Notes: generated by a model from the letters alone, not told the origin. A DNA stretch of 25,197 nt from a bacterium (GCA_025453735.1 JALOPY010000001.1:1-25197), one strand, 5' to 3'; shown: positions 1 to 24,798, counted from the stretch's first letter. Numbers and translations are program-made.

Positions 1-207
1 TTTGATGTTGAAAATCCAAATCTGAAAATTTTTGACATTCACGGCAAAAAAATTAAAGAATTTGGAACTGTTCAAAACCAGGGAAAAGCATTTTTCTGGA
101 ATGGACTGGACGAAACGGGTCGTGAGGTTTTGCCCGGCGCGTATCTGTATATTTTCTCAGATAAAGTCAAAGCACTGGCACGGGGATGTGTCGTTGTTGC
201 ACGATAA
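1..207 (+). CDS. 3' end (partial) of a protein with a T9SS type-B sorting / gliding motility-associated C-terminal domain (CHU_C/FlgD-like)
   Basis: Missed by the ORF track. Frame 1 is open from the window edge to TAA 205-207: FDVENPNLKIFDIHGKKIKEFGTVQNQGKAFFWNGLDETGREVLPGAYLYIFSDKVKALARGCVVVAR*. The pattern IFD-x2-G...W-N-G-x4-G...P-G-x-Y-x-Y...G-x-V-V-V-x-R-stop is the type-B CTD signature, and the next gene is PorP/SprF-like, the usual partner. Confidence 0.8.
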   Translation, partial: FDVENPNLKIFDIHGKKIKEFGTVQNQGKAFFWNGLDETGREVLPGAYLYIFSDKVKALARGCVVVAR

Positions 208-223
208 CATAATAGGTGTAACC

Positions 224-2029
224 ATGAAACAAATAATTTTGACAATAATTTTTTTAAGCATGATGATAAACCTTCCCGGTGAAGGCTACAGCCAGAACAT
301 CATTCGCACCAATCCGGCGGATGTGATGGATTCCCGGGCGTTGTTCATCAATCCCGCGATTTTGCCCTATCGAAACATGACATTCAACCTGGGAATGAAA
401 GTCTTTCACCTCGGTTTTTTGAGTGATAACAGCACGGGTTTGAATTACAGCTATAGCAGCAACAGCTTTCCCAATCTGTTGTTGGATAGAATTGGAGTTG
501 GGATCACACTGGAGAGCTTCAATACTCCCTATTTCAATACCGCAGGTTTAGGGGTTGCTTTTGCCTATTCTATTACTCCTGGTTTTTCTTTCGGAGTCAG
601 CGCGCATGGCAGCAACCTGAGTTACGATGTCAGTAAGTTTGATCTGGTCAATCCCGATGATCCGGTATTTCGAAATGGTGCGGGACAATGGAATGTGCGT
701 TTTGATGCGGGCTTGCTGGTGCGTCCGATGAACAATTTTGCGGTTGGGCTAAGCTGCAACAATCTCAATCGCCCCGACCTTTCTTTGGTCAATGATGGCG
801 CAAAAATTCCGATTGAATTAAATTTTGGAATCAAACAATATTTTAAAATTTTTGGCGCATCGCTGTTCGGTCATTATGAAAATGAAGACGTGACGCTGGG
901 TTTTCTCTGTGAAGCGAATATCCAGAATAAAGGAATGATTCGAACCGGCTATTGCGATCGCTCGCTTATGATTGAAGGACAGCTTAACGTCGGGAGCGGC
1001 TTTGCGCTGAATTATCGCCTGGATTATCCGATTTACGAAGTAAATAATTTCAGCAGTGGCTCGCATGAGCTGGGAATCACCTGGAACATGCGACCGAATC
1101 CTGAATATTCATTTTCAGTACGCGCATCTGTCGATACAGTGCGATTAGTACGAGAAACCTCAAAGATAAGAATTAATAAACAGGAAGATCAACAACAAAT
1201 ATTTGACCAGATTGATGATCATGATTTGGAATTTTCTGGCGCGAGAACGAAGAAGGAGCAGGATATTCCAACCGCTGCATCATCCGGCATGTCGCTGGAT
1301 GACGTTTTTAACGAGAGCTTACCTTTCAGCAAATATCTCGATACTTATCGACAAAACTTTCAAGAGATTAGTGATAATATCAAATCATCGGGTCCGCACC
1401 TCAAAGTCGATATTTATTATCTCGACGCCACAACGGCTGAACGGGCTGTGATGATCAAAAATTATTTCTTAGATACGCTGAAGTTCAAAGAAAAAGATAT
1501 TCGGCTCCATCAAGAGGCGAATTCGAACGGCAATCACAGTACTCGAAAAGATAGCATAAAATCGCTATTAGAAAATTCAAATGATTGGGGCACTCCCAAA
1601 GAATACATTGAAATTTCAAGTGCGCCGATTGAGAATTTGGTTCCCGACAAAATTTATTTTCAAATCAATGCACCGAATATCGGACGGGTGACAAAATGGC
1701 GGATCCTGGTCACCAATATTTTAGGTGACCAAATTCACGAAATCAGCGGCTATCAAAATATTGAAAGAGAAGTGACATGGGATGGTTTTAAAAGAGATGG
1801 ATCAGCCGTGCCGGTCGGAAATTATTATTATCAATTTCAATATGTCATTGGCGGAGGCGATCGTTGGTTTCCCAAAAAGCCAGATATTCATCCGATCGTT
1901 TTTATCCAGGTGCGGCGTTCTAAAATCATTGAGCTGACAACCTCGGAGCTAATCCATTTAGATAAATTAAAAGAGGTTATTATCCGGCTGAAAAATCCCG
2001 CTGAGTCGGAGAATGCTCAAACTCCATAA
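224..2029 (+). CDS. PorP/SprF-family outer-membrane beta-barrel with a ~310 aa C-terminal extension (degenerate OmpA-like segment plus FlgD-type Ig domain)
   Basis: Start moved to ATG 224 (AGGTG at 214-218; the 32-223 extension overlaps the upstream gene). Signal peptide MKQIILTIIFLSMMINLPGEGYS-Q, then ALFINPA (PorP-type NPA motif), alternating beta-strand pattern, and SSGSHELGITW (PorP-type GSHE last strand). The C-terminal part carries WRILVTNILG...VTWDG-x4-G-x2-VPVGNYYYQF. Confidence 0.72.
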   Translation: MKQIILTIIFLSMMINLPGEGYSQNIIRTNPADVMDSRALFINPAILPYRNMTFNLGMKVFHLGFLSDNSTGLNYSYSSNSFPNLLLDRIGVGITLESFNTPYFNTAGLGVAFAYSITPGFSFGVSAHGSNLSYDVSKFDLVNPDDPVFRNGAGQWNVRFDAGLLVRPMNNFAVGLSCNNLNRPDLSLVNDGAKIPIELNFGIKQYFKIFGASLFGHYENEDVTLGFLCEANIQNKGMIRTGYCDRSLMIEGQLNVGSGFALNYRLDYPIYEVNNFSSGSHELGITWNMRPNPEYSFSVRASVDTVRLVRETSKIRINKQEDQQQIFDQIDDHDLEFSGARTKKEQDIPTAASSGMSLDDVFNESLPFSKYLDTYRQNFQEISDNIKSSGPHLKVDIYYLDATTAERAVMIKNYFLDTLKFKEKDIRLHQEANSNGNHSTRKDSIKSLLENSNDWGTPKEYIEISSAPIENLVPDKIYFQINAPNIGRVTKWRILVTNILGDQIHEISGYQNIEREVTWDGFKRDGSAVPVGNYYYQFQYVIGGGDRWFPKKPDIHPIVFIQVRRSKIIELTTSELIHLDKLKEVIIRLKNPAESENAQTP

Positions 2030-2105
2030 TGAAATCATGGTATGCAATCTGAATCGATAACTATTCGATGGTGTGCGTACATCAGTTGAAGGAGAGATCG
2101 TTACA

Positions 2106-3758
2106 ATGAAAGTTATGACAGTATTAATCATTTTCATAATTATTTTGCATGTTGGGTTTTCATCTATAATGGTTTTTTCACAAGACGAGGAACCTGCGAG
2201 CCAGGTGAATGTTCCATCGTCCACAGATACGCTTGCAGCGGGACAATCAGGTCTGGATACTGGCAAAAGAGGTTTTTCAGTAGAAACGATGCTGGAGCTG
2301 CTAAAATTGTGTGAAGGAATCGGATATTTATTGATAATGGTTTTTGTTCTTGGAGTCTTATTTATTTTCCAGAAATGGTTTGTATTGCTCCGTGAGAAGC
2401 AAGATACCGAGAAGATACCCGTTGCTAAAATGAAAACGATGAGTTATGATGACATCCAAAAAATGTTCACCCATGTAAAAGACGCGAATCCTGATTCTGA
2501 TGATGACGACCAAAGTGAAAATAAAAATATCCCACTCCTGAAACGAATATTTCGAAGAAAGAAAGCATCAGCATTTCAATTGCTGTCAAAACTCTATAAA
2601 GTTTTTGAAAGTCAAAAATCAACCAGTTCATTCGTTGAAGAGACATCAAGCTATATTCAACATTTAAAAGATGGATTTAATCCATTTTTTACTCGTCTAT
2701 CGTTTTTCTCTGACACGGCTGGAGCTTTAGGCTTACTGGGAACAGTGTGGGGAATGTTTCTGGTGTTTTACAAGGGATCGCCGGATCCAGAAGATACGCT
2801 GCGCGGTATGGGAATCGCACTGGCAACGACGATTGTTGGATTAGTAATTAGTATTATCTTAAATTCATTTACAACAGTGATCAGCAATATCTTTGATAAA
2901 CACCTGGATTTTATCAAAAACATGTCCACCGCTTTTCAAGAGCGGTTGATGAAAGAAGAGGAAAAATACCCAATCAAAGCGCAACCTATCATTGTCGAAT
3001 CATCGGCAATTGCAGCGCGACCACAACAAATTCCCGAGATGTCGAAGCGAGAGGAAAAAGCCAAACACAAACCAATTCAGGAGGCATCTAAAGAACCAGC
3101 ACAACAACAAATCCTTAAAGGCAATCCTGCTGAGATCCGGATCAAAAAAGGCGATAACCAATCGGGCGAAGTGGGAACGAAGTTATCTGATCCGATTGTT
3201 GTTGAAGTGCTGGATTCAAAAGGCAATGCTCTGGAGAATGAGACAGTGGTTTTTAGCTCGGATGAAGGTTCTGGGGTTTTCTCAAATAATAGTCGCGTTC
3301 AAAAAATTCTTACCGATGAAGAAGGAATCGCCCAGACGAATTTTACGCTTGGTCGAACAAGCGGTGAAAAGACAATCCACGTTGCCGTTGAAGATAGCAA
3401 CAATCGTGGCATAAAACTGCTGGCAATCGCGAAACCAACTCCACCGACCAAGCTGATTGAATTGAAAGGTAATTATCAAACCGGGGAATTGGGAAAACGG
3501 CTGCCGTTGCCTTTTATCGTCGCGGTGCGGGATAAGTATGACAATCCGATTCAGCGCTATGAAATAAATTTTTCATTGAAAAAAGGAACCGGACGATTTC
3601 AGGATAGCCAGAATGCGCACTACGCCACCTATACGAATGAAGATGGCTTAGTCGAGGTTTATTTTATCATTGGCAACAATCGAGGTGGGCGAGAAATCGA
3701 AGCTGAAGCAAAAAAAGTGGAGCCATCAAAAATATTGTTTGAAGCATTTGCACAGTAA
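2106..3758 (+). CDS. exbB: MotA/TolQ/ExbB proton-channel protein with two C-terminal Big-1 (invasin/intimin-type) Ig-like domains
   Basis: Likely start ATG 2106 (AAGGAG 2089-2094). Signal peptide, TM1 GIGYLLIMVFVLGVLFIF, TM2 AGALGLLGTVWGM and TM3 GIALATTIVGLVISII are ExbB/TolQ hallmarks. Two repeats follow, GDNQSGEVG..L.DPIVVEVLDSKGN...TDEEG.A and GNYQTGELG..LP.PFIVAVRDKYDNP...TNEDG.V, typical of Big-1. Confidence 0.88.
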   Translation: MKVMTVLIIFIIILHVGFSSIMVFSQDEEPASQVNVPSSTDTLAAGQSGLDTGKRGFSVETMLELLKLCEGIGYLLIMVFVLGVLFIFQKWFVLLREKQDTEKIPVAKMKTMSYDDIQKMFTHVKDANPDSDDDDQSENKNIPLLKRIFRRKKASAFQLLSKLYKVFESQKSTSSFVEETSSYIQHLKDGFNPFFTRLSFFSDTAGALGLLGTVWGMFLVFYKGSPDPEDTLRGMGIALATTIVGLVISIILNSFTTVISNIFDKHLDFIKNMSTAFQERLMKEEEKYPIKAQPIIVESSAIAARPQQIPEMSKREEKAKHKPIQEASKEPAQQQILKGNPAEIRIKKGDNQSGEVGTKLSDPIVVEVLDSKGNALENETVVFSSDEGSGVFSNNSRVQKILTDEEGIAQTNFTLGRTSGEKTIHVAVEDSNNRGIKLLAIAKPTPPTKLIELKGNYQTGELGKRLPLPFIVAVRDKYDNPIQRYEINFSLKKGTGRFQDSQNAHYATYTNEDGLVEVYFIIGNNRGGREIEAEAKKVEPSKILFEAFAQ

Positions 3759-3877
3759 TTGATACAATATCAGACTTATTATCAAATTATTTGACAAAAT
3801 ATAAAAAGCGAATTCCTCGATCAGTTGTTTTTTTCAGGATTAAGGGATTCGCATTTTCTTAATTAAGGGATTGAACT

Positions 3878-4294
3878 ATGTCTAAAGGTGGCATTATTAT
3901 TCGATTGATCGATATCGTACTGCTGTTGCTGTTTGGCTTTTTGATCGTTAGCGAAGTCAATCGAAAGAGTCCTGTAAAACTTCCGCAAAGCGATGTAAAA
4001 GTGAAGCGGGAGATAACCGAAGAAGAACTGCTGATTATTGGAATCAGAGCGGATAAATCATTGTACCTGGAAGGCGAGAATCGAGTTGTCCCAAGTTTGA
4101 CAGAATTGTATAACCTGATCACAATACGCAATCAAAGTTTTGAATCCTTGAACAGAAAATTTCGCGTTCGTATTCGTTCCGAGTGGAATTTGCCAATAAA
4201 ATATACCATGCAAATTGCGAATTTCTGTCGCAAGAATAACATTCCTGTTGGGATGGACATCCATAATGTGAGTTATAAAAGTTCTGGAAGTTAG
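3878..4294 (+). CDS. exbD: ExbD/TolR-family biopolymer transport protein (paralogue 1)
   Basis: N-terminal TM LIDIVLLLLFGFLIV with the conserved Asp, VKLPQS after the TM, small periplasmic domain, directly downstream of exbB. Confidence 0.88.
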   Translation: MSKGGIIIRLIDIVLLLLFGFLIVSEVNRKSPVKLPQSDVKVKREITEEELLIIGIRADKSLYLEGENRVVPSLTELYNLITIRNQSFESLNRKFRVRIRSEWNLPIKYTMQIANFCRKNNIPVGMDIHNVSYKSSGS

Positions 4295-4306
4295 CTGAGA
4301 AAGATT

Positions 4307-4780
4307 ATGAAAAAAAGTGGTGGCAGCTTAATTATCCGTTTGATCGATGTTGTATTGCTCTTGTTATTGGGATTTTTGCTAATTAGCGACATCGTCCACA
4401 AAAGTCAAATCAAGCTTCCTGGACCAACCGGAACCAGCAGAAAGCAGGTGCAGGAACAAAAAATCCAAAACATTCATATCAATATTGTTGATGAAGATAC
4501 GACAATTGCAGGAATCGATCCTGAAAAAGAATATTCATTAATCAGATTAGCGCAGTTGCATTGTTACTACCTGGTTCAAGAGGATGACAAAATTTATCAC
4601 ATCCGCGACCTGGAAAAACTGGAGAAACATTTGATTTTGGCACAAGCTGCTTATGATTCAATTTCAGTGATTATTGACCCGCGTCCTAATTCCATCGTCC
4701 AGGGAACGATAAATCTAATTGATGTTTGTCGTAAATATGGATTTAAGCGGCGATTTCAATATAGCGAGGATTATGACTGA
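4307..4780 (+). CDS. exbD: ExbD/TolR-family biopolymer transport protein (paralogue 2)
   Basis: TM LIDVVLLLLLGFLLI with the conserved Asp, IKLP after the TM, C-terminal VIIDP...VQGTINLIDVCRKYG resembling the ExbD C-terminal fold. Confidence 0.83.
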   Translation: MKKSGGSLIIRLIDVVLLLLLGFLLISDIVHKSQIKLPGPTGTSRKQVQEQKIQNIHINIVDEDTTIAGIDPEKEYSLIRLAQLHCYYLVQEDDKIYHIRDLEKLEKHLILAQAAYDSISVIIDPRPNSIVQGTINLIDVCRKYGFKRRFQYSEDYD

Positions 4781-5796
4781 TGAAAGTTAAATTTGACACA
4801 TTAACCTGGGATCGGATTGATGAAGATCGTTGGATAACTGCATCGATAGCGACACTCATATTTTTGTTGCTGACGTTTTTGATTTTTAACTCAATCCAGA
4901 TCCCCCAAAATCCGAAAAAAGTCGCTATCACTGAAGAGATAGATTTTGTCAAACCAGAAGTCAAGAAAAAGGTCGTAGAAGAAAAAAAAATTGAGGAAAA
5001 AATCACTGAAGAAAAAATTACAGAAGAAGACCCAGAGATAATTCTGAATTTATTTATGAATACTCCAACCAACATTGAAAACCTGCCGCAAAATTTAAAA
5101 TTTGACACCGATTTTAAAATATTCGAAAAAGAGAATGCTTCAATTGAAGAGGCGCAAGCGATTACACAAATAGCAGACGGATTGCTGCTTGATAATACCG
5201 ATGTTGATCCAATAGATGTTCCCAAAGGCTTGAGCGCTGAATGGGCTGACAATAATGCTTCGACGACAATTATTACCCCGACAATTGGCAACAAAACCCT
5301 TAATGAAAATGTTGGAATCTCCACAACAATAAAAACTAAGACCCATCGGCTATCTAATGATTTTTCCGGCTTCAAAGGAAATATTGAATGGGAGAAATTA
5401 CTCGATCCCATTTTCGAGTGGATCCGAAAAAATGCCGGACCCATTGGAAGAGTTCCAACTTTCTTTATAACAGATAATGATCCAACTGCCAGAACGGCAA
5501 AAACGATTATTTCGATTGGTAATGTGCAGTATGAGTTGCTTTTAGCGAGCAAAGAAGAAAAACGCGAGCTTAAAATTTGCCTGGTCAATCTTGAAACTCA
5601 GGAATTTGTAAAACTCACGGATGTCGGTTTAACCCAGACCAGCAGCGTGTTTAATACTGGTCTGGTTCGACGACAGGATGATGGTGAAATTTTTAATTTT
5701 TCAAAAGGCACCTATCATAATGCAGATAATCCTAAGGCTCAGGAATTCATGAAAGTATTCTGGCAATGGGCAAAATCGGTGACAGGGAAAGGATAA
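4780..5796 (+). CDS. Single-pass membrane protein in the TonB/TolA position with a Lys/Glu-rich linker and an unrecognised periplasmic C-terminal domain
   Basis: ATG overlaps the exbD2 stop (TGATG 4778-4782). One N-terminal TM (WITASIATLIFLLLTFLIF), charged linker KPEVKKKVVEEKKIEEKITEEKITEEDPE, then a globular domain. The CDS is clear; the TonB-like role is inferred from synteny and architecture only. Confidence 0.55.
   Translation: MKVKFDTLTWDRIDEDRWITASIATLIFLLLTFLIFNSIQIPQNPKKVAITEEIDFVKPEVKKKVVEEKKIEEKITEEKITEEDPEIILNLFMNTPTNIENLPQNLKFDTDFKIFEKENASIEEAQAITQIADGLLLDNTDVDPIDVPKGLSAEWADNNASTTIITPTIGNKTLNENVGISTTIKTKTHRLSNDFSGFKGNIEWEKLLDPIFEWIRKNAGPIGRVPTFFITDNDPTARTAKTIISIGNVQYELLLASKEEKRELKICLVNLETQEFVKLTDVGLTQTSSVFNTGLVRRQDDGEIFNFSKGTYHNADNPKAQEFMKVFWQWAKSVTGKG
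4981..5025 (+). repeat. Three imperfect 15-nt in-frame tandem repeats (EKKIE/EKITE/EKITE) in the TonB-like linker
   Basis: gaaaaaaaaattgag / gaaaaaatcactgaa / gaaaaaattacagaa read directly from the sequence. Confidence 0.7.
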
Positions 5797-5891
5797 TTCT
5801 TTTGTTGACAGAAGAATTCTTTTAACTACCCCCCACATTTTTTTTTGATACAATAATTGCATTAATGCATAAAAACAATAGGAATTGGACA

Positions 5892-7262
5892 ATGATCTCT
5901 AAGAGATTTCTATTTTTTATTGTTCCGCTTTTAATCATCGCAACAACAGGTATTGCTTCAAATGGTGCGCTGCAAGTTGCCGGAGCAGCAAAATCTATCA
6001 CGGCTATTGACACCACGATGTGGAAATACCTTTCTGCTTCGGATCGCTCGCAATGGACAATTAGCAAAGAAGATTCTGAAAAGGCATATCGGACCTATTT
6101 TGTGAATGGCGCGAAAGCGTTTCGCGACTTCACCATCCTGTCTCAAAAAATCGAAACGAAACGTGCAACAATCCAGGATATTGCAGATGACTTGATTAAA
6201 TGCTTATCTCAAGCTCGGGGCGAGTTTGAAAAAGGAATAAAACTCGATCCATTTAATAATTATCTTCGAACTGCAATCACAGCAGTCTATTTGAACCTGG
6301 ACCCGTTGTTAGCTTATAAAAATGATAATCCCAATCGACTGCAAATTCTGTTTAATAAAATCTATCTTGAGACCGATCCCTTAAAAAAAGCAGATCTATA
6401 TAATAAAATTGGCAAGATTTATTTTAATTATAAAAGCTGGGAAAAAGCTCGCGATAATTTCCAGTTGGCAGTAGCAAATATATTTGAAGGAGAAGTAACT
6501 GACATCGATACGGCAAAATTATTTGATAATATTTATTATCGCGGATATTCGCATCTGAAATTGTATGAGGACGAACCAGCATTGACATCATTCGAGAACG
6601 CCAGCATGATCGCCCCAACAGAGGATCAAAAAAAAGATCTGGCACGATGGATTGATTATATTAATTGGGATAAAGGAAACATACATGCCTCAGAACAGTA
6701 TCAAAATGCAAAAGCCTTTTATGCTGAAAAGAAATATGATGATGCTGAACGCGCCTATCTGGATCTTATCCAGATCGTTCAAACTGAGCATGCCAGAGAC
6801 GAAATAGCCTATCGCTTATCGATGGTTCAGTTTAATAATTTAGATAAAAAGCCAGAAGCTATCCAGCGATTATGGAATGTCGTAAAAACATTTTCACTGG
6901 ATGAAACGACAGGTGTACCAAACGAACCAACTCAAGCTGAATACTGGGAATCATATTGCAAAATGTGTCTTAATCTGGCAGCCAATAGTTTTTATGAAGA
7001 TAAAAAAACAGCATTTATTTATTTCCAAAAAGCCTCTCAAATCGAAAGCTCGATCCGCGGCAATGCATTTTTGAATCTTGCCATCATGTCTCTTAACAAC
7101 CCGGAGCTATGCTTGAATTTCTGTGATCGTTCATTTTCCTATATTGACAGATTGAATGAAAGCGATAAAAAAATGCTTTATAATACGTATTACAGAGCGT
7201 ATCAGCAAAAAGGTAATTTTGATGAAGCGATGAAGTGGTTTAAAAAATTCAATGAGATTTAA
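5892..7262 (+). CDS. Exported TPR-repeat protein, WDxGN family paralogue 1 (Sec/SPI, no lipobox)
   Basis: Likely start ATG 5892. Hydrophobic signal MISKRFLFFIVPLLIIATTGIA, TPR-like helices (LYNKIGKIYFNYKSWEKARDNFQLA) and the family motif INWDKGNIHASE. Confidence 0.8.
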   Translation: MISKRFLFFIVPLLIIATTGIASNGALQVAGAAKSITAIDTTMWKYLSASDRSQWTISKEDSEKAYRTYFVNGAKAFRDFTILSQKIETKRATIQDIADDLIKCLSQARGEFEKGIKLDPFNNYLRTAITAVYLNLDPLLAYKNDNPNRLQILFNKIYLETDPLKKADLYNKIGKIYFNYKSWEKARDNFQLAVANIFEGEVTDIDTAKLFDNIYYRGYSHLKLYEDEPALTSFENASMIAPTEDQKKDLARWIDYINWDKGNIHASEQYQNAKAFYAEKKYDDAERAYLDLIQIVQTEHARDEIAYRLSMVQFNNLDKKPEAIQRLWNVVKTFSLDETTGVPNEPTQAEYWESYCKMCLNLAANSFYEDKKTAFIYFQKASQIESSIRGNAFLNLAIMSLNNPELCLNFCDRSFSYIDRLNESDKKMLYNTYYRAYQQKGNFDEAMKWFKKFNEI

Positions 7263-8805
7263 TTATATCGGAAAGCTCAGTTCGATGGATAATTGCAAAT
7301 ATTTTGTTTTATTTATATTGCTGATGATTGCTGGCTGCGCGGTGCAACAGCCTGTTATTCGGGAAGCGACAACTATAATAGCGAAAGTACCTCCCGGTGT
7401 TGATACTCTGACAGCAGTTATCGCTGACTCAATTTTCTCCCTGGTGGATGTCGCCGAAGAGGATGGACAAGAATCGAAACGATTATACGATATCGCGGAA
7501 CAAAGAAGCAGCCTGGCAGATTCTCTTTGGGAGGCAAGTGTCAGTGGATTCGAAACTGGACAGGATTCTGCTGCAGCGCTGCAGCAGATTTTGCACGCTG
7601 AAGAATTGTTTCAGGCCGACAAAGAATGGCTGAAACAAACCAGAAAAATGATGAAGAAGCAGGGACGTTTAACTCCGGCAGTTCTATCTCACATAAGTGA
7701 TCACTTATCTGTTCAAGCTGAAGGGTATTATGAAAGTGCGATCAAGAAAAATCGTTTTGATATCCGCTATCGACAAAAATATAGCAAATTTTTGAAAGAT
7801 TTATCTGTCAAATATAAAGATCAAAGCTATCTCTATCGGGCTGCCGATGAGCTGGAACGGGTCGTGTTCGTCGTCAAAGGCAATCATCAGCTTTTTTATG
7901 AATTGGGAGAAATTTATGTGCTGTTGGGGGATTGGAACAACGCGCATAAGAATTATGAATTAGCACAAACTGCATTGAAAAAAACAGCAATTTTTTCTGT
8001 TGCGGATCCAAAAACTTATTTTTTGAAGCTCAGTGAAGTTCCAGTCGATACAATGAGAATGGTTAATTATCTTAATAAGCAAGCCTGGTGCAAGACGAAG
8101 TTGTACGAAGCGCTGCCCGCTCTCTCGTTATACCGGGAAGCTTCAGGAATAACTCCAGATCCAGCCTGGAAGGACTATTTTGAATCACGGATAACATGGA
8201 TTTTGTGGGATGATGGAAATATTCGTGCGTCTGAGATAAAAGACCGAGCAGATTCCTTAAGCTCATTCTATCAAAAATATTCAGAATCAAAAACGGTATT
8301 TTTAGAACTGCTTCCAGTACTCTGGACGAAACGGACGAAAGATGAGATCAATTGGAAAATCGCTCAATTAGACTTCAGTTATTTAGACCATAAGTTTGAC
8401 GGCGTCGGGAGAATGTACCTGGTCATCAAACACACTGCCATGGATTCTATTACTGGTGCGCCAATCGACTCGACCTATAAACGGTATTTTGACAGCTATG
8501 GCACGATGTGTTTCAATTTGGGTTCTGAATATTATTATAAAGATAGGTTGATTGCTTATATGTATTTTATTCAGGCGGCAGAGACCAACTTTGATAAACG
8601 TGCCAAGGCGTTTTTACAGTTAGCTGATATATCCCAATTTGATCCATACGAAACGATCAACCTCTGCACGAAAACAATAGAAGTCGTCGATGACTTGAGC
8701 TTAGATGAGCGACAGGTTTTATATCGATTGCTTCATAGTTCCTACCGAAAATTGGGAGATTTTGAGAAAGCAAAAGAATGGTACGATCGCTGGAAAGCTT
8801 TATGA
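7252..8805 (+). CDS. TPR-repeat lipoprotein, WDxGN family paralogue 2
   Basis: Lipobox IAG-C (Cys codon 7336-7338); alternative start ATG 7285. TPR LFYELGEIYVLLGDWNNAHKNYELA and motif ILWDDGNIRASE. Confidence 0.82.
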   Translation: MRFNYIGKLSSMDNCKYFVLFILLMIAGCAVQQPVIREATTIIAKVPPGVDTLTAVIADSIFSLVDVAEEDGQESKRLYDIAEQRSSLADSLWEASVSGFETGQDSAAALQQILHAEELFQADKEWLKQTRKMMKKQGRLTPAVLSHISDHLSVQAEGYYESAIKKNRFDIRYRQKYSKFLKDLSVKYKDQSYLYRAADELERVVFVVKGNHQLFYELGEIYVLLGDWNNAHKNYELAQTALKKTAIFSVADPKTYFLKLSEVPVDTMRMVNYLNKQAWCKTKLYEALPALSLYREASGITPDPAWKDYFESRITWILWDDGNIRASEIKDRADSLSSFYQKYSESKTVFLELLPVLWTKRTKDEINWKIAQLDFSYLDHKFDGVGRMYLVIKHTAMDSITGAPIDSTYKRYFDSYGTMCFNLGSEYYYKDRLIAYMYFIQAAETNFDKRAKAFLQLADISQFDPYETINLCTKTIEVVDDLSLDERQVLYRLLHSSYRKLGDFEKAKEWYDRWKAL

Positions 8806-8841
8806 TTTCGGAACATGAAATTTGTATGAATTGAGGAGAAA

Positions 8842-10473
8842 ATGAGGATTCTGATAAAGACGATATTTTTATTGTACCTGGTGTTAACGATCATTGGCTG
8901 TTCGAACAATAAAAGCATGATTGATCAATCAATTATTAATTTTGAGCAAAAATCTTTTCAAATTCCCGCCGGAATTGATAGTGTGGTTGCCTATAACGCA
9001 AGAATAAAAGCTGACAAGCTTTTTGTCAGTGCCGATCGCGAACAACTATCAGATAGCCTGGTAACGTATTCTCGAGATTTTCTAAAAATTACTGAAGACT
9101 TGTACAGTGTTCTATTAGCAAAAAAAGAAAAGTTGGATAGTTACCGGCTTTCAGAAAAATATCTGAATTTAAAACCAGAAGAGCTTAAATCATTATCGCT
9201 CGAGGATAGCAAGAAACGAGAGCGAATTTTAGAAAAAGTATTTGACGATTCGATTACGATAACAATAGTGAACAGTCTCCTGGATTATTTTTTAAACCAT
9301 AGCAATGAGCTGCTCCAGCATGCGAATGAATTAAATCCTTTCAATTTGTCGGGATTACAGCTAGTGGCGATTAGCAGCGCAGATAGAGGTCAAATATTTG
9401 ATGATACGCTTGCTTATCGTCGCTCAATTGAGTACTTAAATAAATTTCTTACGCATGATCGAGGACAGTCGATAATTTATCGAAATATTGGTGAAAGCTA
9501 TTTTACATTGAAGGATTGGCAAAAAGCCTATAAATTCTTGAAGAAAGCAAAGGAAACTTTTGTTATCACATCGTTTTTTGAAGAGAAAAAAACGGAGCTG
9601 GCAGAAAAATATCAAAAAATGAATTTGCCGCCCAATGTCGATCCAGCAAAATATTTTGAATATCTCTATTGGAAAGGAAGAGCAGAAATAAAAGTCTATC
9701 AAGCTGATTCAGCATTGGCAACACTGAAACAGGCGCTTGCGCTTGCTCCCACGAAGAATCAGGAAGTTGACGTTATCAAGTTGATTGATGAATACATATT
9801 GTGGGACGGCGGAAATATTTATGCTGCTGAGCAACGAGATATTATCATTGATTCGCTCAATGCAAAGAATTTTGTTTGGGCAAAAAATGCATATTTGCAA
9901 TTGTTGCCAAAAGTAAAAACGAAAAAGGCGAAGGATAACATTACCTGGATGTTAGCTCGTGTTGAATATTACAGCCTGGATCAAATTGAAGAAGCCGGCG
10001 ATCGATTATATAATTTGGTAATTAATGCGGATACGAGCAAAATTAAATCGTCGATTTATAAAGCTCCGGAAGATTCATTATATAAGCGGTATTTCAGAGA
10101 TTGTGGAGAAATATTGTTCCGGCTGGGCAGCACGTTTCGCGATCAGGGATTGCAGGAAAAAGCAAGGATTTATTTCTCGAAAGACACGACCTTCGAATGG
10201 TCTGGCAGGGGGAAAGCTTTTCTGCCCCTGGCCCTGCTGGTTGATATTCCTGAAAATATTGATCCGGTAGAACGATTGAAAGCAAGAAATGAAAAAGCGA
10301 TAAAAATTTTGAATCGGGCAAAAATGTTTATCAAGGATTTTTCAGAGCAGGAAATTGATCAACTCTATCGCCCCTTGATAATGATTTATCAACAAACGTA
10401 TGACAGGGCAAATGCACAAAGAAGTTTCACTGAATGGAATGAGATCAAAGAGAGGATGAAACGAGGTTCATAA
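8842..10473 (+). CDS. TPR-repeat lipoprotein, WDxGN family paralogue 3
   Basis: SD GAGGAG just upstream, lipobox IIG-C, TPR IYRNIGESYFTLKDWQKAYKFLKKA and motif ILWDGGNIYAAE. Confidence 0.82.
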   Translation: MRILIKTIFLLYLVLTIIGCSNNKSMIDQSIINFEQKSFQIPAGIDSVVAYNARIKADKLFVSADREQLSDSLVTYSRDFLKITEDLYSVLLAKKEKLDSYRLSEKYLNLKPEELKSLSLEDSKKRERILEKVFDDSITITIVNSLLDYFLNHSNELLQHANELNPFNLSGLQLVAISSADRGQIFDDTLAYRRSIEYLNKFLTHDRGQSIIYRNIGESYFTLKDWQKAYKFLKKAKETFVITSFFEEKKTELAEKYQKMNLPPNVDPAKYFEYLYWKGRAEIKVYQADSALATLKQALALAPTKNQEVDVIKLIDEYILWDGGNIYAAEQRDIIIDSLNAKNFVWAKNAYLQLLPKVKTKKAKDNITWMLARVEYYSLDQIEEAGDRLYNLVINADTSKIKSSIYKAPEDSLYKRYFRDCGEILFRLGSTFRDQGLQEKARIYFSKDTTFEWSGRGKAFLPLALLVDIPENIDPVERLKARNEKAIKILNRAKMFIKDFSEQEIDQLYRPLIMIYQQTYDRANAQRSFTEWNEIKERMKRGS

Positions 10474-10566
10474 TTTGGAAAAATGAATTCAGTGGTCTAA
10501 GATCAAGACATAATTGCTATTCATTACATGTACATTGACGGTTATTAATGAGAAGGAAAAATTACT

Positions 10567-11259
10567 ATGAAACGAAGAAAATATATATTTGGCATGGTCG
10601 CGATTTCAATGTTTATCATGATAACGGCGAATACAGTTTTTGGACAACAAAATTTTATTTGGGATAAAGAGCTAGTCCAAAAAGTAACGATTACCGATCA
10701 AAGTGTCATTAAAAAATTAGTCTTTGAATTGTTTATTCCGGAGTCGGATATTACATTTATTGAAATTTTCGATGTCGATAAAAATGGGGCGGCGGAAGGG
10801 GATCTGCTGAAAGTTCATCCATCCCGAAATGTCTATCCGCTATATATGTTGTCACAAGATACTCGAGAAATATTGAGAAAAATACCGCATCCACCCAATT
10901 TAGAGGATGTCGGATTAACGATCAATATTAAGAATCCAGATGATGCAAAGGAGCGAATTTTGTTTATCCTGGCTTCAACGATAAAAGAATTGTATAGCCA
11001 GGATAAGCCATTGAAATTATATTTTGAACAGAATGAGGATGGCGTGTATAAATTCGATTTCTTTGGATTTAGCGAGGCGGATTTGAAAGATAAGGATATC
11101 GATCTTGGCAAAAATAGAAGTCAGCAAATCCACGATCTCTTGAAAGCGTTGTACAAAGAATTTAATGAGGAATTTGTAAGCTGGCAACCGACAGTGATTC
11201 ATGTTATAAAAACTGAGCGAGATACCCTGGTTGTGCCTGAAAAAATTTCAAAAAAATAA
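10567..11259 (+). CDS. Exported protein of unknown function with a DxDxNG putative Ca-binding loop
   Basis: AAGGA upstream, signal peptide ending TVFG-Q, DVDKNG loop; no other family recognised. Confidence 0.7.
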   Translation: MKRRKYIFGMVAISMFIMITANTVFGQQNFIWDKELVQKVTITDQSVIKKLVFELFIPESDITFIEIFDVDKNGAAEGDLLKVHPSRNVYPLYMLSQDTREILRKIPHPPNLEDVGLTINIKNPDDAKERILFILASTIKELYSQDKPLKLYFEQNEDGVYKFDFFGFSEADLKDKDIDLGKNRSQQIHDLLKALYKEFNEEFVSWQPTVIHVIKTERDTLVVPEKISKK

Positions 11260-11512
11260 TCTGCAGAAGCATGATTTTTTTTATGAAATAACAAATTCGT
11301 ATTTAGCTTTATTTGCCAGCAAAGGAAAGTAATTTTCAAAATCTCATTCCGGTTTTCTGATAATCTTATAAACTGATATTATTAAAGTTACAAATTTGAG
11401 AGGTTTGCCCGTAACGCAGGCCAATCGTTGCTAAAATGTCATGATCCCTGGTTATTTAGCAGGCAAGAAAATTAATCAGATAAACCAATTCAGAAATCCC
11501 TAAAAAAAAAGC

Positions 11513-11541
11513 TTGCATTTCTAAAGATATTTTATTAAACT
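11513..11541 (+). promoter_or_regulatory. sigma70-type promoter for the second TPR triplet
   Basis: TTGCAT (11513-11518), 17-nt spacer, TAAACT (11536-11541), preceded by an A9 UP-like tract (11502-11510), in the longest intergenic gap of the window. Confidence 0.62.
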
Positions 11542-11705
11542 TGTACTGCAATAAAAAAATAATGAAATTTCCCCCTGATCAAAAAAACCCAAAACCTGTG
11601 TTCTTTGATTTCGCATTAGTGTTTGAACCAAGTTATTTCTGCAAAATCTAATTTACTGATCAGCAACTATCAACATTTTTGGATATTGTAACTGGGGACT
11701 GCATC

Positions 11706-13190
11706 ATGGATAAGATCAGAAAAATTATGACGCCCTTCCTTTTCTTTAATTTCACTTTAATTGGGTGTATATTAAATAATATAGGACAATCAAAAGGCGC
11801 TTTATTATCAATGAATATGATTTCTTTGGATGGGAAGTTATCACCCAAAAGTGATCGCACTGCAATAAGTACCAACAAAGAAATCGAAGATACGATTCGA
11901 GAGATTAACCATTATTCTTTAAGTGATTCCTTATGGAAAATGTGGCGCGCGATTGAGGATTCTCAATTCGTTGTTGCAAAGGTCGATTCCATTCGATCGA
12001 TGAAAACATTTATCAAAGGGGTGAATCTGGCGAAAGAAGCATTTGATCTGATTAATGAATTAAAGCAACAAAATCTCGATACATTGTCTGTTAAAAAAAT
12101 AAAATTTACAGCCATTCTGTTGTTTGAAAAAGCTCGTGCGCATTTTGAAGAAACATTTAAACTGAATCCTTTCGATATTAGAACCCAAAATTATTTGATC
12201 TGGGTCTTTCAAAATCTGGCTGAGCTATACGATCATTGCGATAATAAACTTCGTGCGATAAATATGTTGGAATATCTAACGTATATTTTGAATGATGATC
12301 CGAAGCTTTACTATACGCTGGGACAGAAATATTTCAGTATTGGCAAATGGGAGCAATCCCTTGTAAATGTGCGTGCATCAATTGATCTCATTCTGGATGA
12401 TGATTGGAACAAGATTGATACGAATCAACTGTTTTGGCATTACTATCTGCGCGCCAGGGCAGAAATGCAACTGGAATTGATTCCGGAGGCTTTGTTATCG
12501 CTTAACTATGCGAAGCTTATTGCCCCATCTGAAAACGAGGCAGGAGAAGTCCAAAAAAAGATCGAATGGATTAATTGGGATGATGGCAACCTGAATGCGT
12601 CGCGAAAATCAGATACACTGGAAACCAGGCTGAATCAGGGCGCAAAAGATTACTCGATGATCAAACAAGAATATGTCGAATTACTCAGCCAGGTCAGAAC
12701 TGCAAAAGCAAAACAAGATATCAATTGGCGCATTGCTCAGCTCGAATTCAATTTTTTAAATGAAAAAGAGATTGCCATCGACCGGATGATGAAAATTGTA
12801 AATGCTACTGAGTTGGACTCTACGAGAAGCGCTGCCGATGTGAAATCTCAAAAATACATTGAAGATTACTGCTTAATGTCTTATGTTTTCGGATTGGATT
12901 ATCTGAGAAATCAGCATCTTAAAAAAGCTTTCGTTTACTTTTACCAATCCATCTCATTCTCGTGGAGCCGAATTGGAAAAGGCTATCTTCAATTGGCAAA
13001 ACTTGTTGCATTGGATAACAATGCAGTATTAAAATTTGCTGAGCAGGCTTTGATCTATCAAGATCAATTGACTGACGATGAACGAAATAGTTTATATCAA
13101 TTGTTTTATCAATCATACAAAAAATTGGGCAGATTTGATGATGCAGCAATCTGGCTGCAAAAATCAGTTAGTTTCTCGATGGGTGAGTGA
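11706..13190 (+). CDS. TPR-repeat (lipo)protein, WDxGN family paralogue 4
   Basis: Likely start ATG 11706 (GGGGA 11694-11698). Possible lipobox LIG-C, KLNPFDIR, TPR LYYTLGQKYFSIGKWEQS and motif INWDDGNLNASR. Confidence 0.8.
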   Translation: MDKIRKIMTPFLFFNFTLIGCILNNIGQSKGALLSMNMISLDGKLSPKSDRTAISTNKEIEDTIREINHYSLSDSLWKMWRAIEDSQFVVAKVDSIRSMKTFIKGVNLAKEAFDLINELKQQNLDTLSVKKIKFTAILLFEKARAHFEETFKLNPFDIRTQNYLIWVFQNLAELYDHCDNKLRAINMLEYLTYILNDDPKLYYTLGQKYFSIGKWEQSLVNVRASIDLILDDDWNKIDTNQLFWHYYLRARAEMQLELIPEALLSLNYAKLIAPSENEAGEVQKKIEWINWDDGNLNASRKSDTLETRLNQGAKDYSMIKQEYVELLSQVRTAKAKQDINWRIAQLEFNFLNEKEIAIDRMMKIVNATELDSTRSAADVKSQKYIEDYCLMSYVFGLDYLRNQHLKKAFVYFYQSISFSWSRIGKGYLQLAKLVALDNNAVLKFAEQALIYQDQLTDDERNSLYQLFYQSYKKLGRFDDAAIWLQKSVSFSMGE

Positions 13191-14689
13191 TGGGAATTAA
13201 ATTCTATCCATTTTTAATTATTTGTTTATTTCTATCTGTAATTTCTTGTTCGCTAAATAAATCATTAAGAAAGGATCAGCTTTCCAAGCTACCTTCTCCT
13301 AAAGATGATTATTATCCGGGAGTTGATAGTACGGTGGTCAAAAATGCCAATGAAATTGCTGATCGAATGTTTGTTGACTATGACAGGCGAAACCAGTCTA
13401 GCGCCTACCACAACAGCGCGAAAACATCATTTCAAATCGCCGATTCGATCTGGAATTGTCATAAACACAAAACCTATCCTGATTCGATTCTTTTGAAATT
13501 ATTTTTAAGCTGGCAACGAGGGCGCGACAACGATTCAAAGCAAAATGATAATTCAATTCCTGGCAGAATGATTCGACCCAATGAATCATCATTGCATATC
13601 TTGCATCAAGCGGAGAAAGACGCCAATCAAGCCAAGCTCATCAATCCATTCGACCTCGATATTCGATCCTTATTAATTAATATTTATTCACGAATGGGTG
13701 AGATCAGTGGCAATTTAAATTTTTATACGAAAGCCATTGAGGAACTGAAAAATTTATTACAGGTAGATAAAAGCAATCCTTATATATATGAACGATTAGC
13801 TGAATGCTATTTTGCATTGCAAGATTGGGAGAATTGCTATCAATGTTTTGATAAAGCCGAGCAAGTCCTGCTGATCGTTGCAAAATTCAAAAACAGCAAA
13901 AATAATCCTTCCAGCGCTTCGGTTGACACGGCTCGCTGGGTTTATTATCTGCAAGGAAAAGGCGAAGCGCAAGCCAAACTCTACGATTCAGCTCTTGCAA
14001 TAACCTACCTGACCAGAGCAAAGCAGATGACACATTCGGCGTCGAATGCACAGCAGTTGCAGAATTATTTAAACTGGATCGAATGGGATGGAGGCAATTT
14101 GAAAGCTTCTGAGCTTCGGGACGAGGCTCAGCATGTTGAACAAGCTGGCGAATACAAAAAAGCGCACAGCAAATATTTACAGCTATTAGGAATCCTTACA
14201 ACCCAACAAGCAAAGAATGAAATTGATTGGAAAGTTGCTTCGATTGATTTCAATCATTTGAGTGAAAAATTGGAAGCGATCGAAAGGATGTTCCAGGTCA
14301 TTCAAAGTATTCAAAAGTCTGGCAACTCGCATGAATTGAATGATGTCTATTTGCAAGATTATGCAGCGATGTGTTATTCTATCGGGGTTGACTATTATAA
14401 TAAGCATAACTATCGTTTCGCTTACATCTATATTAATCAGGCAGCACAATTTGAATGGGAACATCGCGGTGATTGTTATCTGCAATTAGCCATGCTGTCA
14501 GAAGTGAATCCACACGAGAGCATTCAGTTTTGTCAGAAAGCATTGGCGTATTCGAAACAATTATCCGATGAAAGTCAAAACAAGATTCAAAAAATGTTGA
14601 CCGTTTCATTCATTCGATTGGGGGAGTTCGATCTGGCGCAAAATTATTATCAGAAATTTTTAAATTCCAAATCATCACCAAACAATTAG
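13190..14689 (+). CDS. TPR-repeat lipoprotein, WDxGN family paralogue 5
   Basis: ATG 13190 overlaps the upstream TGA (the track starts at GTG 13187). Lipobox VIS-C, LINPFDLD, TPR IYERLAECYFALQDWENCY and motif IEWDGGNLKASE. Confidence 0.82.
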   Translation: MGIKFYPFLIICLFLSVISCSLNKSLRKDQLSKLPSPKDDYYPGVDSTVVKNANEIADRMFVDYDRRNQSSAYHNSAKTSFQIADSIWNCHKHKTYPDSILLKLFLSWQRGRDNDSKQNDNSIPGRMIRPNESSLHILHQAEKDANQAKLINPFDLDIRSLLINIYSRMGEISGNLNFYTKAIEELKNLLQVDKSNPYIYERLAECYFALQDWENCYQCFDKAEQVLLIVAKFKNSKNNPSSASVDTARWVYYLQGKGEAQAKLYDSALAITYLTRAKQMTHSASNAQQLQNYLNWIEWDGGNLKASELRDEAQHVEQAGEYKKAHSKYLQLLGILTTQQAKNEIDWKVASIDFNHLSEKLEAIERMFQVIQSIQKSGNSHELNDVYLQDYAAMCYSIGVDYYNKHNYRFAYIYINQAAQFEWEHRGDCYLQLAMLSEVNPHESIQFCQKALAYSKQLSDESQNKIQKMLTVSFIRLGEFDLAQNYYQKFLNSKSSPNN

Positions 14690-14696
14690 TTCAGCT

Positions 14697-16172
14697 ATGA
14701 AAACTCGGCAGCATAATCATATCATTTCTCTAATCATTCTCCTCTATATTATTTTGATTTCATGCAACCGTTCGAGCTATCGATTGCCCGTCTTTCGAAC
14801 GCATAACGATTCTCCCGTCGGAGTGGATAGCCTGATTATTGCAGATTCAGATTCAGTCATAAAATTTCTATTTGTTGATTTCGCGAGCGAGCGCAAAGCA
14901 AGTGACCTTGCCCGAGAAGCACAGACTGAATTAAGTTTAGCAGATTCTGTCTGGCAATTAATAAAAACGGATAGCGACAGTACGAAACGATTCATAATTT
15001 CGACTACTGATACTATCGCTAAATCACAAGTCGAATATAATATTGCAGTAAAAAAAATTATTAGTGGATTAGAGATTGCTGAGCGCCGGTTTCAACAATC
15101 GATTAAATTGAATCCCTTTCTCCTGAGCTCAAAAGATGGCCTTGCGCAAACGTATATTTTGTGGGCACAAATCGAAAAACCCCTGTTTTATTTTGAGAAA
15201 GCCGCAGCAGTACTTGCCAAATTAGTGCAAAATGAAAAGAGCGAACATATTCTATGCTACCGATTGGGAGAATGTTATTTTCAACTGGGAAAATGGGAAC
15301 AGGCTTTTTCAAATTATCATCAAGCTGAAAAGATTTTTATTGGTACAAAAGCATTCTCGAACGGTGGTCTGTTTGAAAATAAACCTGAAGATTATCATAA
15401 AAATGATCTGTTATTCAATTACTTATACTCTCAAGCTGTGTGCCTGGCACGAATGTATAAATCGCCGGAAGCATTGATAATTATCAACCAGGCAAGAGAT
15501 ATGGCGCCAAATGATTCGTTAAGAAATATTGCAGAACGATTTGAAGACTGGATCAATTGGGATAAAGGAAATATCTATACGGCAGAACAAAAGAATCAAA
15601 TATTAAAATTAATCAATGAAAAAAATTACCAGGATGCATCCATAAAATTTGATTCCCTGAAAAATCAATTATCTGACCCATTGGCAATCGTGGAAATCGA
15701 ATGGCGCATTGCCGGGCTTGAGTTCAGATATTTAAATAAAAAAGAACAGGCGTGTGAACGTTTATTGACTATCATCGAGAAAAGCCATAATTTTTCCAAT
15801 CATCCCAATCACTCAATTATCGATTTTAGCACCTACTTAAATGATTGCGGAGTCATGCATTATCATTTAGGCATGGAATTCATCGAAAAAACAGATTACA
15901 AACAAGCGCAGAAATATTTGGAGCAAGGCGCAAAAATTGATTGGTATGGCAATTACAAGTGCCAATTAGAATTGGCAAAACTGAATCGTCATGATCCGCA
16001 AATCTCATTATCGCTGATCGAAAAAGTCTTAACAACAGAATCTGCTTTGACAGAAGTTGAAAAATTAACCGCTCTTGAAATTAAATTAGGAGCTTTGAAA
16101 AAATTAGGTCCCCAGCATCGAATTGAAGCGAAGCACGTTTATAATCAGATCCGTGAGCTCCAGAACAAATAG
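14697..16172 (+). CDS. TPR-repeat lipoprotein, WDxGN family paralogue 6
   Basis: Lipobox LIS-C, KLNPFLL, TPR LCYRLGECYFQLGKWEQAFSNYHQA and motif INWDKGNIYTAE. Confidence 0.82.
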   Translation: MKTRQHNHIISLIILLYIILISCNRSSYRLPVFRTHNDSPVGVDSLIIADSDSVIKFLFVDFASERKASDLAREAQTELSLADSVWQLIKTDSDSTKRFIISTTDTIAKSQVEYNIAVKKIISGLEIAERRFQQSIKLNPFLLSSKDGLAQTYILWAQIEKPLFYFEKAAAVLAKLVQNEKSEHILCYRLGECYFQLGKWEQAFSNYHQAEKIFIGTKAFSNGGLFENKPEDYHKNDLLFNYLYSQAVCLARMYKSPEALIIINQARDMAPNDSLRNIAERFEDWINWDKGNIYTAEQKNQILKLINEKNYQDASIKFDSLKNQLSDPLAIVEIEWRIAGLEFRYLNKKEQACERLLTIIEKSHNFSNHPNHSIIDFSTYLNDCGVMHYHLGMEFIEKTDYKQAQKYLEQGAKIDWYGNYKCQLELAKLNRHDPQISLSLIEKVLTTESALTEVEKLTALEIKLGALKKLGPQHRIEAKHVYNQIRELQNK

Positions 16173-16238: not shown

Positions 16239-16332
16239 GATAATAGTTGAGAAATAATTGGAGATAAGTTAATTATAATCCATTTAATTAACCATGCTTC
16301 TAATCCCTTTAAAATTAAGTGAGGTGATTCTG

Positions 16333-17355: not shown

Positions 17356-17370
17356 GGCGGAGAGATAGCA

Positions 17371-23171: not shown

Positions 23172-23188
23172 GATTGGCAATCCTTGCT

Positions 23189-24696: not shown

Positions 24697-24737
24697 CTGA
24701 TTTTTTTTGATAAGCTTAATTTAGTAATCATTAACAT

Positions 24738-24770
24738 ACAGATTCCATCGCTCCAAGCGATGGAATCTGT
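24738..24770. repeat. Perfect 15-bp inverted repeat (REP-like hairpin) between hmgR and mvk
   Basis: ACAGATTCCATCGCT (24738-24752), CCA loop, AGCGATGGAATCTGT (24756-24770); no U-tract on the coding (-) strand. Confidence 0.8.
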
Positions 24771-24798
24771 GTAAAATTCGAAAGCTGAATGAGCATGA

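Follow-up and report, generated by a model that had tools for sequence, protein, structure and literature searches.

A gene module that joins a type IX secretion system (T9SS) cargo and its outer-membrane carrier to an ExbB/ExbD motor was found in a stretch of bacterial DNA of 25,197 nucleotides (GCA_025453735.1 JALOPY010000001.1:1-25197), herein referred to as the window. The module occupies positions 1-16172, a single co-oriented run in which all genes lie on the + strand. It encodes the cargo, a long PorP/SprF-family carrier named PorP600, an ExbB with additional Ig-like domains, two ExbD proteins, a connector in the position of TonB, an array of tetratricopeptide repeat (TPR) proteins, and, amid this array, a small secreted protein named g230. 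In the prevailing view, both T9SS export and the gliding of Bacteroidota require the GldLM/PorLM motor. The module described here is probably a private energy chain, driven by the proton motive force (pmf), for one T9SS type-B carrier-cargo pair. It is apparently undescribed: no account of it was found in full-text literature on PorP/ExbB, KSB1/T9SS, SprA/GldL outside Bacteroidia, and PorP/TonB, the library searched being incomplete.

The window is the entire contig C242 of a metagenome-assembled genome (MAG) of 4.08 Mb, which consists of 731 contigs and is 86% complete. At NCBI, relatives from its GTDB family are labelled 'candidate division KSB1'. DNA near-identical to the window is present in metagenomes from wetland, soil, and sediment. 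A first-pass annotation of the window had listed the parts of the run at 1-16172, and every part is present at its coordinates on the + strand. The short gaps and overlaps that it described between the genes are found at most junctions, but not before exbD1 (119 nt) or before the fourth TPR gene (419 nt). Its statement that the window encodes no TonB-dependent receptor, TolB, or Pal agrees with the Pfam search of the window proteins, in which no matches were found to PF00593 and Plug, to TolB or OmpA/Pal domains, or to TonB_C. All 20 TonB-dependent receptors of the host genome are encoded on other contigs, and none of its eight TonB_C matches lies on the window contig.

The connector is encoded at positions 4780-5796 (+ strand) and has 338 aa. 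No Pfam or NCBIfam match was found for this protein. In the AF2 model, built from 24 homologues, the connector contains one transmembrane (TM) helix at residues 9-38, a disordered Lys/Glu-rich linker of ~140 aa at residues 47-188, and a C-terminal domain of ~130 aa at residues 204-335 (pLDDT ~88). In order, this domain is predicted to have two helices, a sheet of seven strands, and one more helix. The TM segment has no His. Comparison of the model with the PDB and AFDB clusters by Foldseek, an Atlas shape search, and an exhaustive VIA-align comparison over 48,161 chains returned no TonB or TolA. The structural matches are weak and mixed, the top one being the unrelated protein TipC2 (Z 6.1), followed by polo-box and START-like folds, and no fold family was assigned. 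Judged by the model and the structure searches, the protein in the TonB position lacks the TonB_C fold; it is not a TonB, and its C-terminal domain is, on this model, a new one. The connector family is small: with E 0.001 as the upper limit, 263 clusters were counted in a set of 1.84 billion representatives. Its members are mostly 330-370 aa long, and all are unnamed. A tandem duplicate of the connector was observed within one module (L015, contig C8 of genome G018, positions 11693-13866), the two copies being 35% and 31% identical to the window protein.

The ExbB/TolQ-type stator subunit is encoded at positions 2073-3758 (+ strand, 561 aa), with the ATG at 2106 as the likelier start. It matches MotA_ExbB (44 bits) and Big_1 (52 bits), and the motifs GLLGTVWG and ALATT are seen in its translation. 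Two Big_1 domains, of the invasin Ig type, are encoded at 3130-3758, after the third TM segment. No hydrophobic segment follows this third one, and by the canonical ExbB topology the Big_1 domains are predicted to be cytoplasmic. One or two Big_1 domains were also found in the module ExbBs of six other loci across phyla (L016, L020, L037, L043, L045, and L048). In total, nine ExbBs were found in the host genome. The three module-linked ones rank lowest, with 47-58 bits as compared to 85-120 bits for the other six, and the module ExbBs form, by these scores, a divergent group. ExbD1 (3878-4294, + strand; PF02472, 42.8 bits) and ExbD2 (4307-4780, + strand; PF02472, 42.0 bits) both have the TM Asp, which lies within RLID(I/V)V. 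The parts of a complete pmf motor, as first annotated, are all present. The stop codon of the exbD2 gene overlaps the start of the connector gene.

Known Exb-type systems resemble this part of the module. The Ton system, including exbB-exbD-exbD-tonB clusters of the Bacteroidota style and the Vibrio TonB2 cluster with the TPR protein TtpD, likewise has an ExbB/ExbD stator that contains the TM Asp. In both, exbD is immediately followed by a gene for a protein with a long linker that passes the inner membrane once, and a TPR protein is encoded downstream. Unlike TonB, the connector has neither the TonB_C domain or fold nor the TM His, and its linker is rich in Lys and Glu rather than in Pro. The barrel of the module is a plugless PorP of 14 strands, as compared to the 22-strand receptors of the Ton system; moreover, the module ExbB has Big_1 domains, and the operon includes a secreted surface protein. 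The module also differs from the Tol-Pal system by having neither TolB nor Pal. A published Tol/Exb-type 5:2 motor is similar in having two different TolR/ExbD proteins, a TPR gene, and a TonB-position protein with a non-TonB C-terminal domain. In that motor, the C-terminal domain is a vWA domain and the TM segment has SHLS/His, whereas the module connector has a C-terminal domain predicted to be of a new fold and a TM segment without His. The vWA motor shows that substitutions of the transducer domain exist; no linkage to PorP or to a T9SS cargo is reported for it.

Only the C-terminal 68 aa of the cargo are encoded in the window (1-207, + strand), the gene being cut by the contig end. This fragment is a beta-sandwich resembling a T9SS C-terminal domain (CTD). 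Taken alone, the fragment scores 17 bits with CHU_C, for which the cut-off is 27, and 17 bits with FlgD_ig. It shares 62% identity with the tail of the orthologue in genome G013, which has a CHU_C match of 42.1 bits, and the full-length cargos of five other modules match CHU_C (PF13585 / TIGR04131) with 33-47 bits. Because these orthologues and paralogues pass the CHU_C cut-off, the assignment of the window cargo to type B appears sound by orthology, the type-B signature not being visible in the fragment itself. Thus, the type-B CTD protein of the first-pass annotation stands on its relatives, whereas the 68 aa that it was read from fall below the cut-off. The module cargos reach 1,847 aa and contain Big_5, CARDB, and CarboxypepD_reg domains.

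PorP600 (224-2029, + strand, 601 aa) is a long outer-membrane carrier of the PorP/SprF family. It matches PF11751 with 49 bits (cut-off 22.3) and is aligned end to end with TIGR03519 at 63 bits, which is under the subfamily cut-off of 90.55. The PF11751 model is matched by 25 of the 26 long PorPs. An AF2 model made from 26 homologues (mean pLDDT 80.8) predicts a 14-strand barrel at residues 52-290, a hairpin, an alpha/beta domain at 372-456, and an Ig sandwich at 461-588. The C-terminal tail of ~300 aa would thus consist of the alpha/beta domain and a CTD-like Ig domain. The latter is 32% identical to the CTD of the cargo over 44 aa (E 8e-6). In the PDB, PorP600 is best matched by 8gl6_F, the carrier chain in a T9SS complex with bound substrate, followed by FadL-type barrels. 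The AFDB matches are PorP/SprF clusters, some of which bear other C-terminal additions. Both the sequence and the model fold identify 224-2029 as a PorP-family barrel, as had been proposed.

The distribution of the module was analyzed by searching 41 genomes of the class for the connector and annotating the loci by BLAST; these genomes are mostly MAGs and, being related, are not independent samples. The connector was found in 21 genomes, with 42 connector genes in total. For 39 of these genes, a PorP match was found on the same contig within ~10 kb. For the other three, no PorP match is listed on the contig, and at least one of these contigs (C455) ends within the module. PorP was found in every one of the 21 genomes with the connector. 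The PorPs of the class fall into two sizes, short (~320-360 aa) and long (~570-860 aa). Short PorPs were found with or without the module, and long PorPs (>560 aa) were found only in connector-bearing genomes. The five genomes that have PorP and no connector encode only short PorPs of ~340-360 aa.

The gene order cargo-PorP-ExbB-ExbD-ExbD-connector-TPR(1-3)-g230 was found in nine genomes (G001, G008, G009, G013, G015, G018, G020, G023, and G033). The same genes, in a rearranged order, were found in G025. Two to three further copies of the module are present in the host genome, on contigs C98, C498, and C455, and the paralogous copies in one genome each have a different cargo. The cargo of the C98 copy has a VWA domain. 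In this copy (L021:1-10439, - strand), a VWA-CHU_C protein of 450 aa and a type-A CTD protein of 658 aa, the latter with Por_Secre_tail and DUF3344 domains, are encoded between exbB and the exbD pair. A spacing of ~8-10 kb between PorP and the connector, as in C98, recurs in G007, G008, G009, G012, G013, and G019. A pattern scan with one genome per species revealed the eight-gene order also in MAGs labelled Balneolales, Balneolaceae, Bacteroidetes, Melioribacteraceae, and Gemmatimonadota, and the carriers among Balneolaceae include the cultured isolate ANBcel3. By these labels, the module order recurs in at least three phyla. The locus comparison and the pattern scan therefore both point to a gene order conserved in relatives and across phyla. 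Judged by the variants, the core consists of the cargo, the long PorP, the connector, and g230, which are nearly always found together. The one conserved genetic unit postulated in the first-pass annotation is upheld, and nothing that was to count against it was found in full.

The translocon of the T9SS is present in these genomes. SprA (TIGR04189) was found over the cut-off on contigs C718 and C464 of the host, in 40 of the 41 class genomes, and in all 10 module-bearing genomes outside the class set; G044 is probably the same as G015, which leaves nine new ones. The components of the known motor were not detected. None of the 41 class genomes has a match to GldL, GldM, or GldN, although very divergent homologues could escape such a search and the host genome is 86% complete. 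For GldK, no match over the cut-off was found in the same genomes, only generic matches to the FGE domain. GldL was also found in none of 10 module-bearing genomes outside the class, a set that overlaps the one searched for SprA and is not identical to it. As a positive control, the GldL model was applied to 121 Bacteroidota genomes and matched 30 of them, and the GldM and GldN models matched 5 of 5 GldL-positive genomes. The connector was found in two of the 121 Bacteroidota genomes, both without a GldL match. The idea of a lineage lacking GldKLMN, put forward with the first description of the run, thus holds as far as it is testable.

In two genomes, G001 (L053, contig C74) and G025 (L054, contig C8), sprA is followed by a gene for an M28 peptidase, according to Pfam. 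On the host contig C464, an unannotated open reading frame (ORF) for 318 aa is located at the corresponding position after sprA. Canonical exbB/exbD genes come next on C464 and in G001, in the family of the window, and not in G025. The ExbB/ExbD proteins encoded beside sprA were considered as the true T9SS motor, an idea that was dropped because the arrangement is not conserved.

Among known T9SS components, the closest counterpart of the module is the SprB-SprF pair of Flavobacterium johnsoniae, which is powered by GldLM through the GldKN hub. In both cases, a CHU_C-type cargo, assigned in the window by orthology, is directly followed by its own PorP/SprF barrel, the genome encodes SprA, the cargos resemble adhesins and are large, and a pmf motor is genetically implicated. 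In contrast to SprB-SprF, the motor of the module belongs to the ExbB/ExbD family and not to GldL/GldM, shares an operon with the cargo, and occurs in several copies per genome; the genomes with the module have no match to GldL, GldM, or GldN and none over the cut-off to GldK. The module PorP has double the usual length, with its tail of an alpha/beta and an Ig domain, and the connector, g230, and TPR lipoproteins have no counterpart in the SprB-SprF system.

Six TPR proteins are encoded downstream of the connector, all on the + strand: TPR1 (5865-7262), with a signal peptide and no lipobox Cys, and the lipoproteins TPR2 (7252-8805), TPR3 (8842-10473), TPR4 (11679-13190), TPR5 (13187-14689), and TPR6 (14697-16172). 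Pairwise identities are 23-29% (E 1e-20 to 1e-55), an invariant motif W-D/N-x-G-N is shared by all six, and a lipobox Cys is present in five of them. By pairwise comparison and the common motif, the TPR set, first annotated as an array of six paralogues, consists of genuine paralogues that are old and diverged. The YbgF model matches TPR1 with 23 bits, far under its cut-off of 90. Among the relatives examined, the TPR4-6 block was found only in G008, G013, and G009. It is probably an appended, lineage-specific expansion, because it is confined to the closest relatives and follows a long intergenic gap. Outside the family of genomes to which the window belongs, mostly one TPR gene per locus, or none, was found.

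The protein g230 (10567-11259, + strand) has a signal peptide and 230 aa, is encoded in the middle of the TPR array, and was overlooked in the first-pass annotation. None of 25 homologues has a Pfam match, and an Atlas search gave no usable match. The conserved motif of the family is D-x-x-x-N-G-x-x-x-x-D ... YPS. This protein was found in nearly every module examined, and in most other genomes its gene is the last one of the module. The gap of 419 nt between g230 and TPR4 (11260-11678) contains no ORF of at least 40 aa and no Rfam match. Gaps of ~340-430 nt that likewise lack such ORFs were observed between g230 and TPR4-6 in L011, L012, and L013, the loci of the three closest relatives. The gap may house an internal promoter or a regulatory region. 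In the window as a whole, no Rfam match was found, and the matches of a terminator and promoter scan are close to the level of shuffled sequence.

Downstream of TPR6, positions 16294-18660 (+ strand) encode g353, a lipoprotein with a Ser-rich tail, and a FadL-fold barrel (Toluene_X, 72.6 bits). For this barrel, BamG ranks first in NCBIfam at 100.7 bits, although its cut-off is 250; PorV_fam matches with 47 bits. The g353/FadL pair was also found downstream of the module in L013, L014, and L037; its membership in the module is uncertain. It is followed in the window, at 18747-20855, by a gene for a 702-aa protein with TPR repeats and a GWxTD domain (TIGR04514, 73.6 bits), and then by a gene for an RmlD-type reductase. 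On the opposite strand, at 21894-25197 (-), co-oriented genes encode an HMG-CoA reductase, truncated where the contig ends, a GHMP kinase, a UbiX-like flavoprotein, and a UbiD-like decarboxylase (Pfam). This gene set is reminiscent of an archaeal-type mevalonate pathway, here in a bacterium.

The T9SS of Flavobacterium offers a frame in which the module can be read. There, the substrate is loaded onto the carrier inside SprA without energy, and the step that requires energy is the extraction of the carrier-substrate complex from the translocon (PMC10994853). Type-B cargos there use alternative carriers (PMC10994853), and in Bacteroidia one energy chain exports the type-B gliding adhesins and later propels them (PMC10994853). 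If the module works as a private energy chain, the large type-B surface protein would leave the cell via the SprA pore, and a long PorP/SprF barrel of its own would hold it. At the inner membrane, the stator formed by ExbB, ExbD1, and ExbD2 would turn proton flow into mechanical work. The connector, with its inner-membrane anchor, flexible linker, and new C-terminal domain, would carry this work across the periplasm, and g230 and the TPR lipoproteins may help to join it to the tail of PorP600. The powered step would be the pulling of the loaded carrier off the SprA translocon, as done by GldLM and the hub in Bacteroidia. Later, the motor might hold, tension, or move the anchored surface protein. 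The identity of the parts, their conserved linkage within and across phyla, the non-TonB nature of the connector, and the presence of SprA in lineages in which GldK, GldL, GldM, and GldN were not detected are findings; every physical contact, the direction of force, and the cellular function in this chain are our inference.

The first-pass annotation had proposed a hybrid apparatus in which an ExbBD-type motor acts through a periplasmic TPR scaffold on a PorP-bound surface protein. The genetic unit and the GldKLMN-poor background of this proposal are well supported; a mechanism via the TPR scaffold and homology to the Agl-Glt machinery are not. The TPR scaffold is not an obligatory link, because the TPR gene is missing from some module variants; the partners that do not vary are the connector and g230.

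Several observations weigh against a private energy chain. The same TPR-less variants (L038, L043, and L044) are among them, as are three variants from which exbB/exbD are absent in cis (L035, L036, and L041). In about half of the class genomes, SprA was found without the module. It follows that the lineage cannot rely on the module as its general T9SS motor and that another energy source must exist for type-A cargos; whatever drives type-A export could also serve the type-B ones. The placement of the PorP600 tail in the periplasm, where it should lie because the number of strands in the modelled barrel is even, follows from barrel topology only. Contact between any two module proteins is likewise putative: a single complex prediction, for the connector C-terminal domain with the PorP tail and mature g230, gave no support for binding and equally no evidence against it. 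In the metatranscriptome X24, five short contigs near-identical to the window were found, located on the genes for exbB, TPR1, TPR5, g353, and the FadL-fold barrel. These are too few for a claim of co-transcription, and carry-over of DNA is possible. Finally, the counts given above are limited by genome samples that are interrelated and dominated by MAGs.

A different function, which we regard as rather unlikely, is that of an adhesin-actuating or gliding machine of the Agl-Glt type, with export itself independent of the module motor. The stator would then pull or move the PorP-anchored adhesin, for traction like that of focal adhesions or for unmasking, and the Big_1 tail of ExbB would couple to an intracellular track. 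The Agl-Glt machinery of Myxococcus xanthus resembles the module in one TolQ-like and two TolR-like stator proteins, in several TPR proteins, in connectors that are anchored in the inner membrane and span the periplasm, and in outer-membrane barrels that hold a surface adhesin. The VWA domain of CglB in Agl-Glt has a parallel in the VWA domain of one cargo of the host genome. Such a function is suggested by the adhesin-like domains of the cargos (Big_5, CARDB, CarboxypepD_reg, and VWA in C98), by the single ExbB with two different ExbD proteins, which mirrors AglR/AglQ/AglS, by the TPR lipoproteins, and by the conserved extension of ExbB, predicted to be cytoplasmic. It would also fit the roughly half of the class that has SprA and no module, so that secretion as such does not need the latter, and the export and propulsion of type-B adhesins by one chain in Bacteroidia (PMC10994853). 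However, the likeness is one of parts lists only, and in the Agl-Glt parallel drawn in the first-pass annotation, homology is limited to the Exb/Tol motor and to TPR repeats of a generic kind. The only Glt-specific model with a match in the window is GltE (NF033758), whose cut-off is 225 bits; its match, of 22.5 bits, falls on the TPR-GWxTD protein encoded downstream. GltG and GltJ have TonB_C-like domains, which the module connector lacks, and the outer-membrane part of the module is a T9SS carrier whose cargo uses a T9SS signal. No genes for MglA, AglZ, MreB-type, or cytoplasmic Glt proteins were found in the loci inspected, and gliding is undocumented for these lineages in the searchable literature.

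The private energy chain and an adhesin-moving function may also be combined, a third kind of surface-adhesin motor, beside those of GldLM/T9SS gliding and Agl-Glt, in which the stator and its non-TonB connector would both extract the PorP-bound adhesin from SprA and drive or tension it. We consider this combination unlikely.

It is still less probable, and indeed doubtful, that the module is a device for biogenesis or quality control, inserting the long PorP and its giant cargo into the outer membrane and doing no work on the finished complex. Assembly factors are typically TPR lipoproteins of this kind, the cargos reach a very large size (the 1,847 aa mentioned above), and the pair of g353 and the BamG-like barrel follows the module in several genomes. 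Nevertheless, the BamG match lies far below the cut-off, most modules in other phyla are not followed by the g353/FadL pair, and known pathways of outer-membrane assembly use no Exb-type motor.

Finally, an ordinary Ton/Tol-like system for uptake or envelope maintenance, merely located beside a T9SS cargo/PorP pair, is disfavoured as very improbable. In its favour, runs of exbB-exbD-exbD-tonB-TPR are common in bacteria of the FCB group, the Vibrio TonB2 clusters reportedly end with a gene for the TPR protein TtpD, and 20 TonB-dependent receptors in the genome need energising. Against it stand the recurrence of the adjacency, with unchanged order in at least three phyla and for 39 of 42 connectors in the class, a connector devoid of the TonB_C domain and fold, and a locus that encodes neither TolB nor Pal. 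Moreover, the genome encodes eight TonB_C proteins and six ExbBs with higher scores elsewhere, and each of the several paralogous copies per genome has a different cargo.

Thus, whole lineages possess the SprA pore, CTD cargos, and PorP carriers and have no detectable GldKLMN, and in these lineages ExbB/ExbD are tied genetically to carrier-cargo pairs. The module adds two protein families of unknown fold, represented by the connector C-terminal domain and g230, and an ExbB with predicted cytoplasmic Ig-like domains is unusual for its motor family. If the linkage reflects function, a second and modular route would exist by which the pmf is delivered to outer-membrane carriers, and the set of force transducers would grow past TonB and TolA by the connector family and g230. 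The question of what energises the T9SS outside Bacteroidia would also become directly testable, because the Balneolaceae isolate ANBcel3 is cultured. If the motor both extracts and drives its adhesin, then bacteria of the KSB1/Calditrichota type, Balneolales, and some Gemmatimonadota would have a GldLM-independent way of energising the T9SS and, possibly, gliding.

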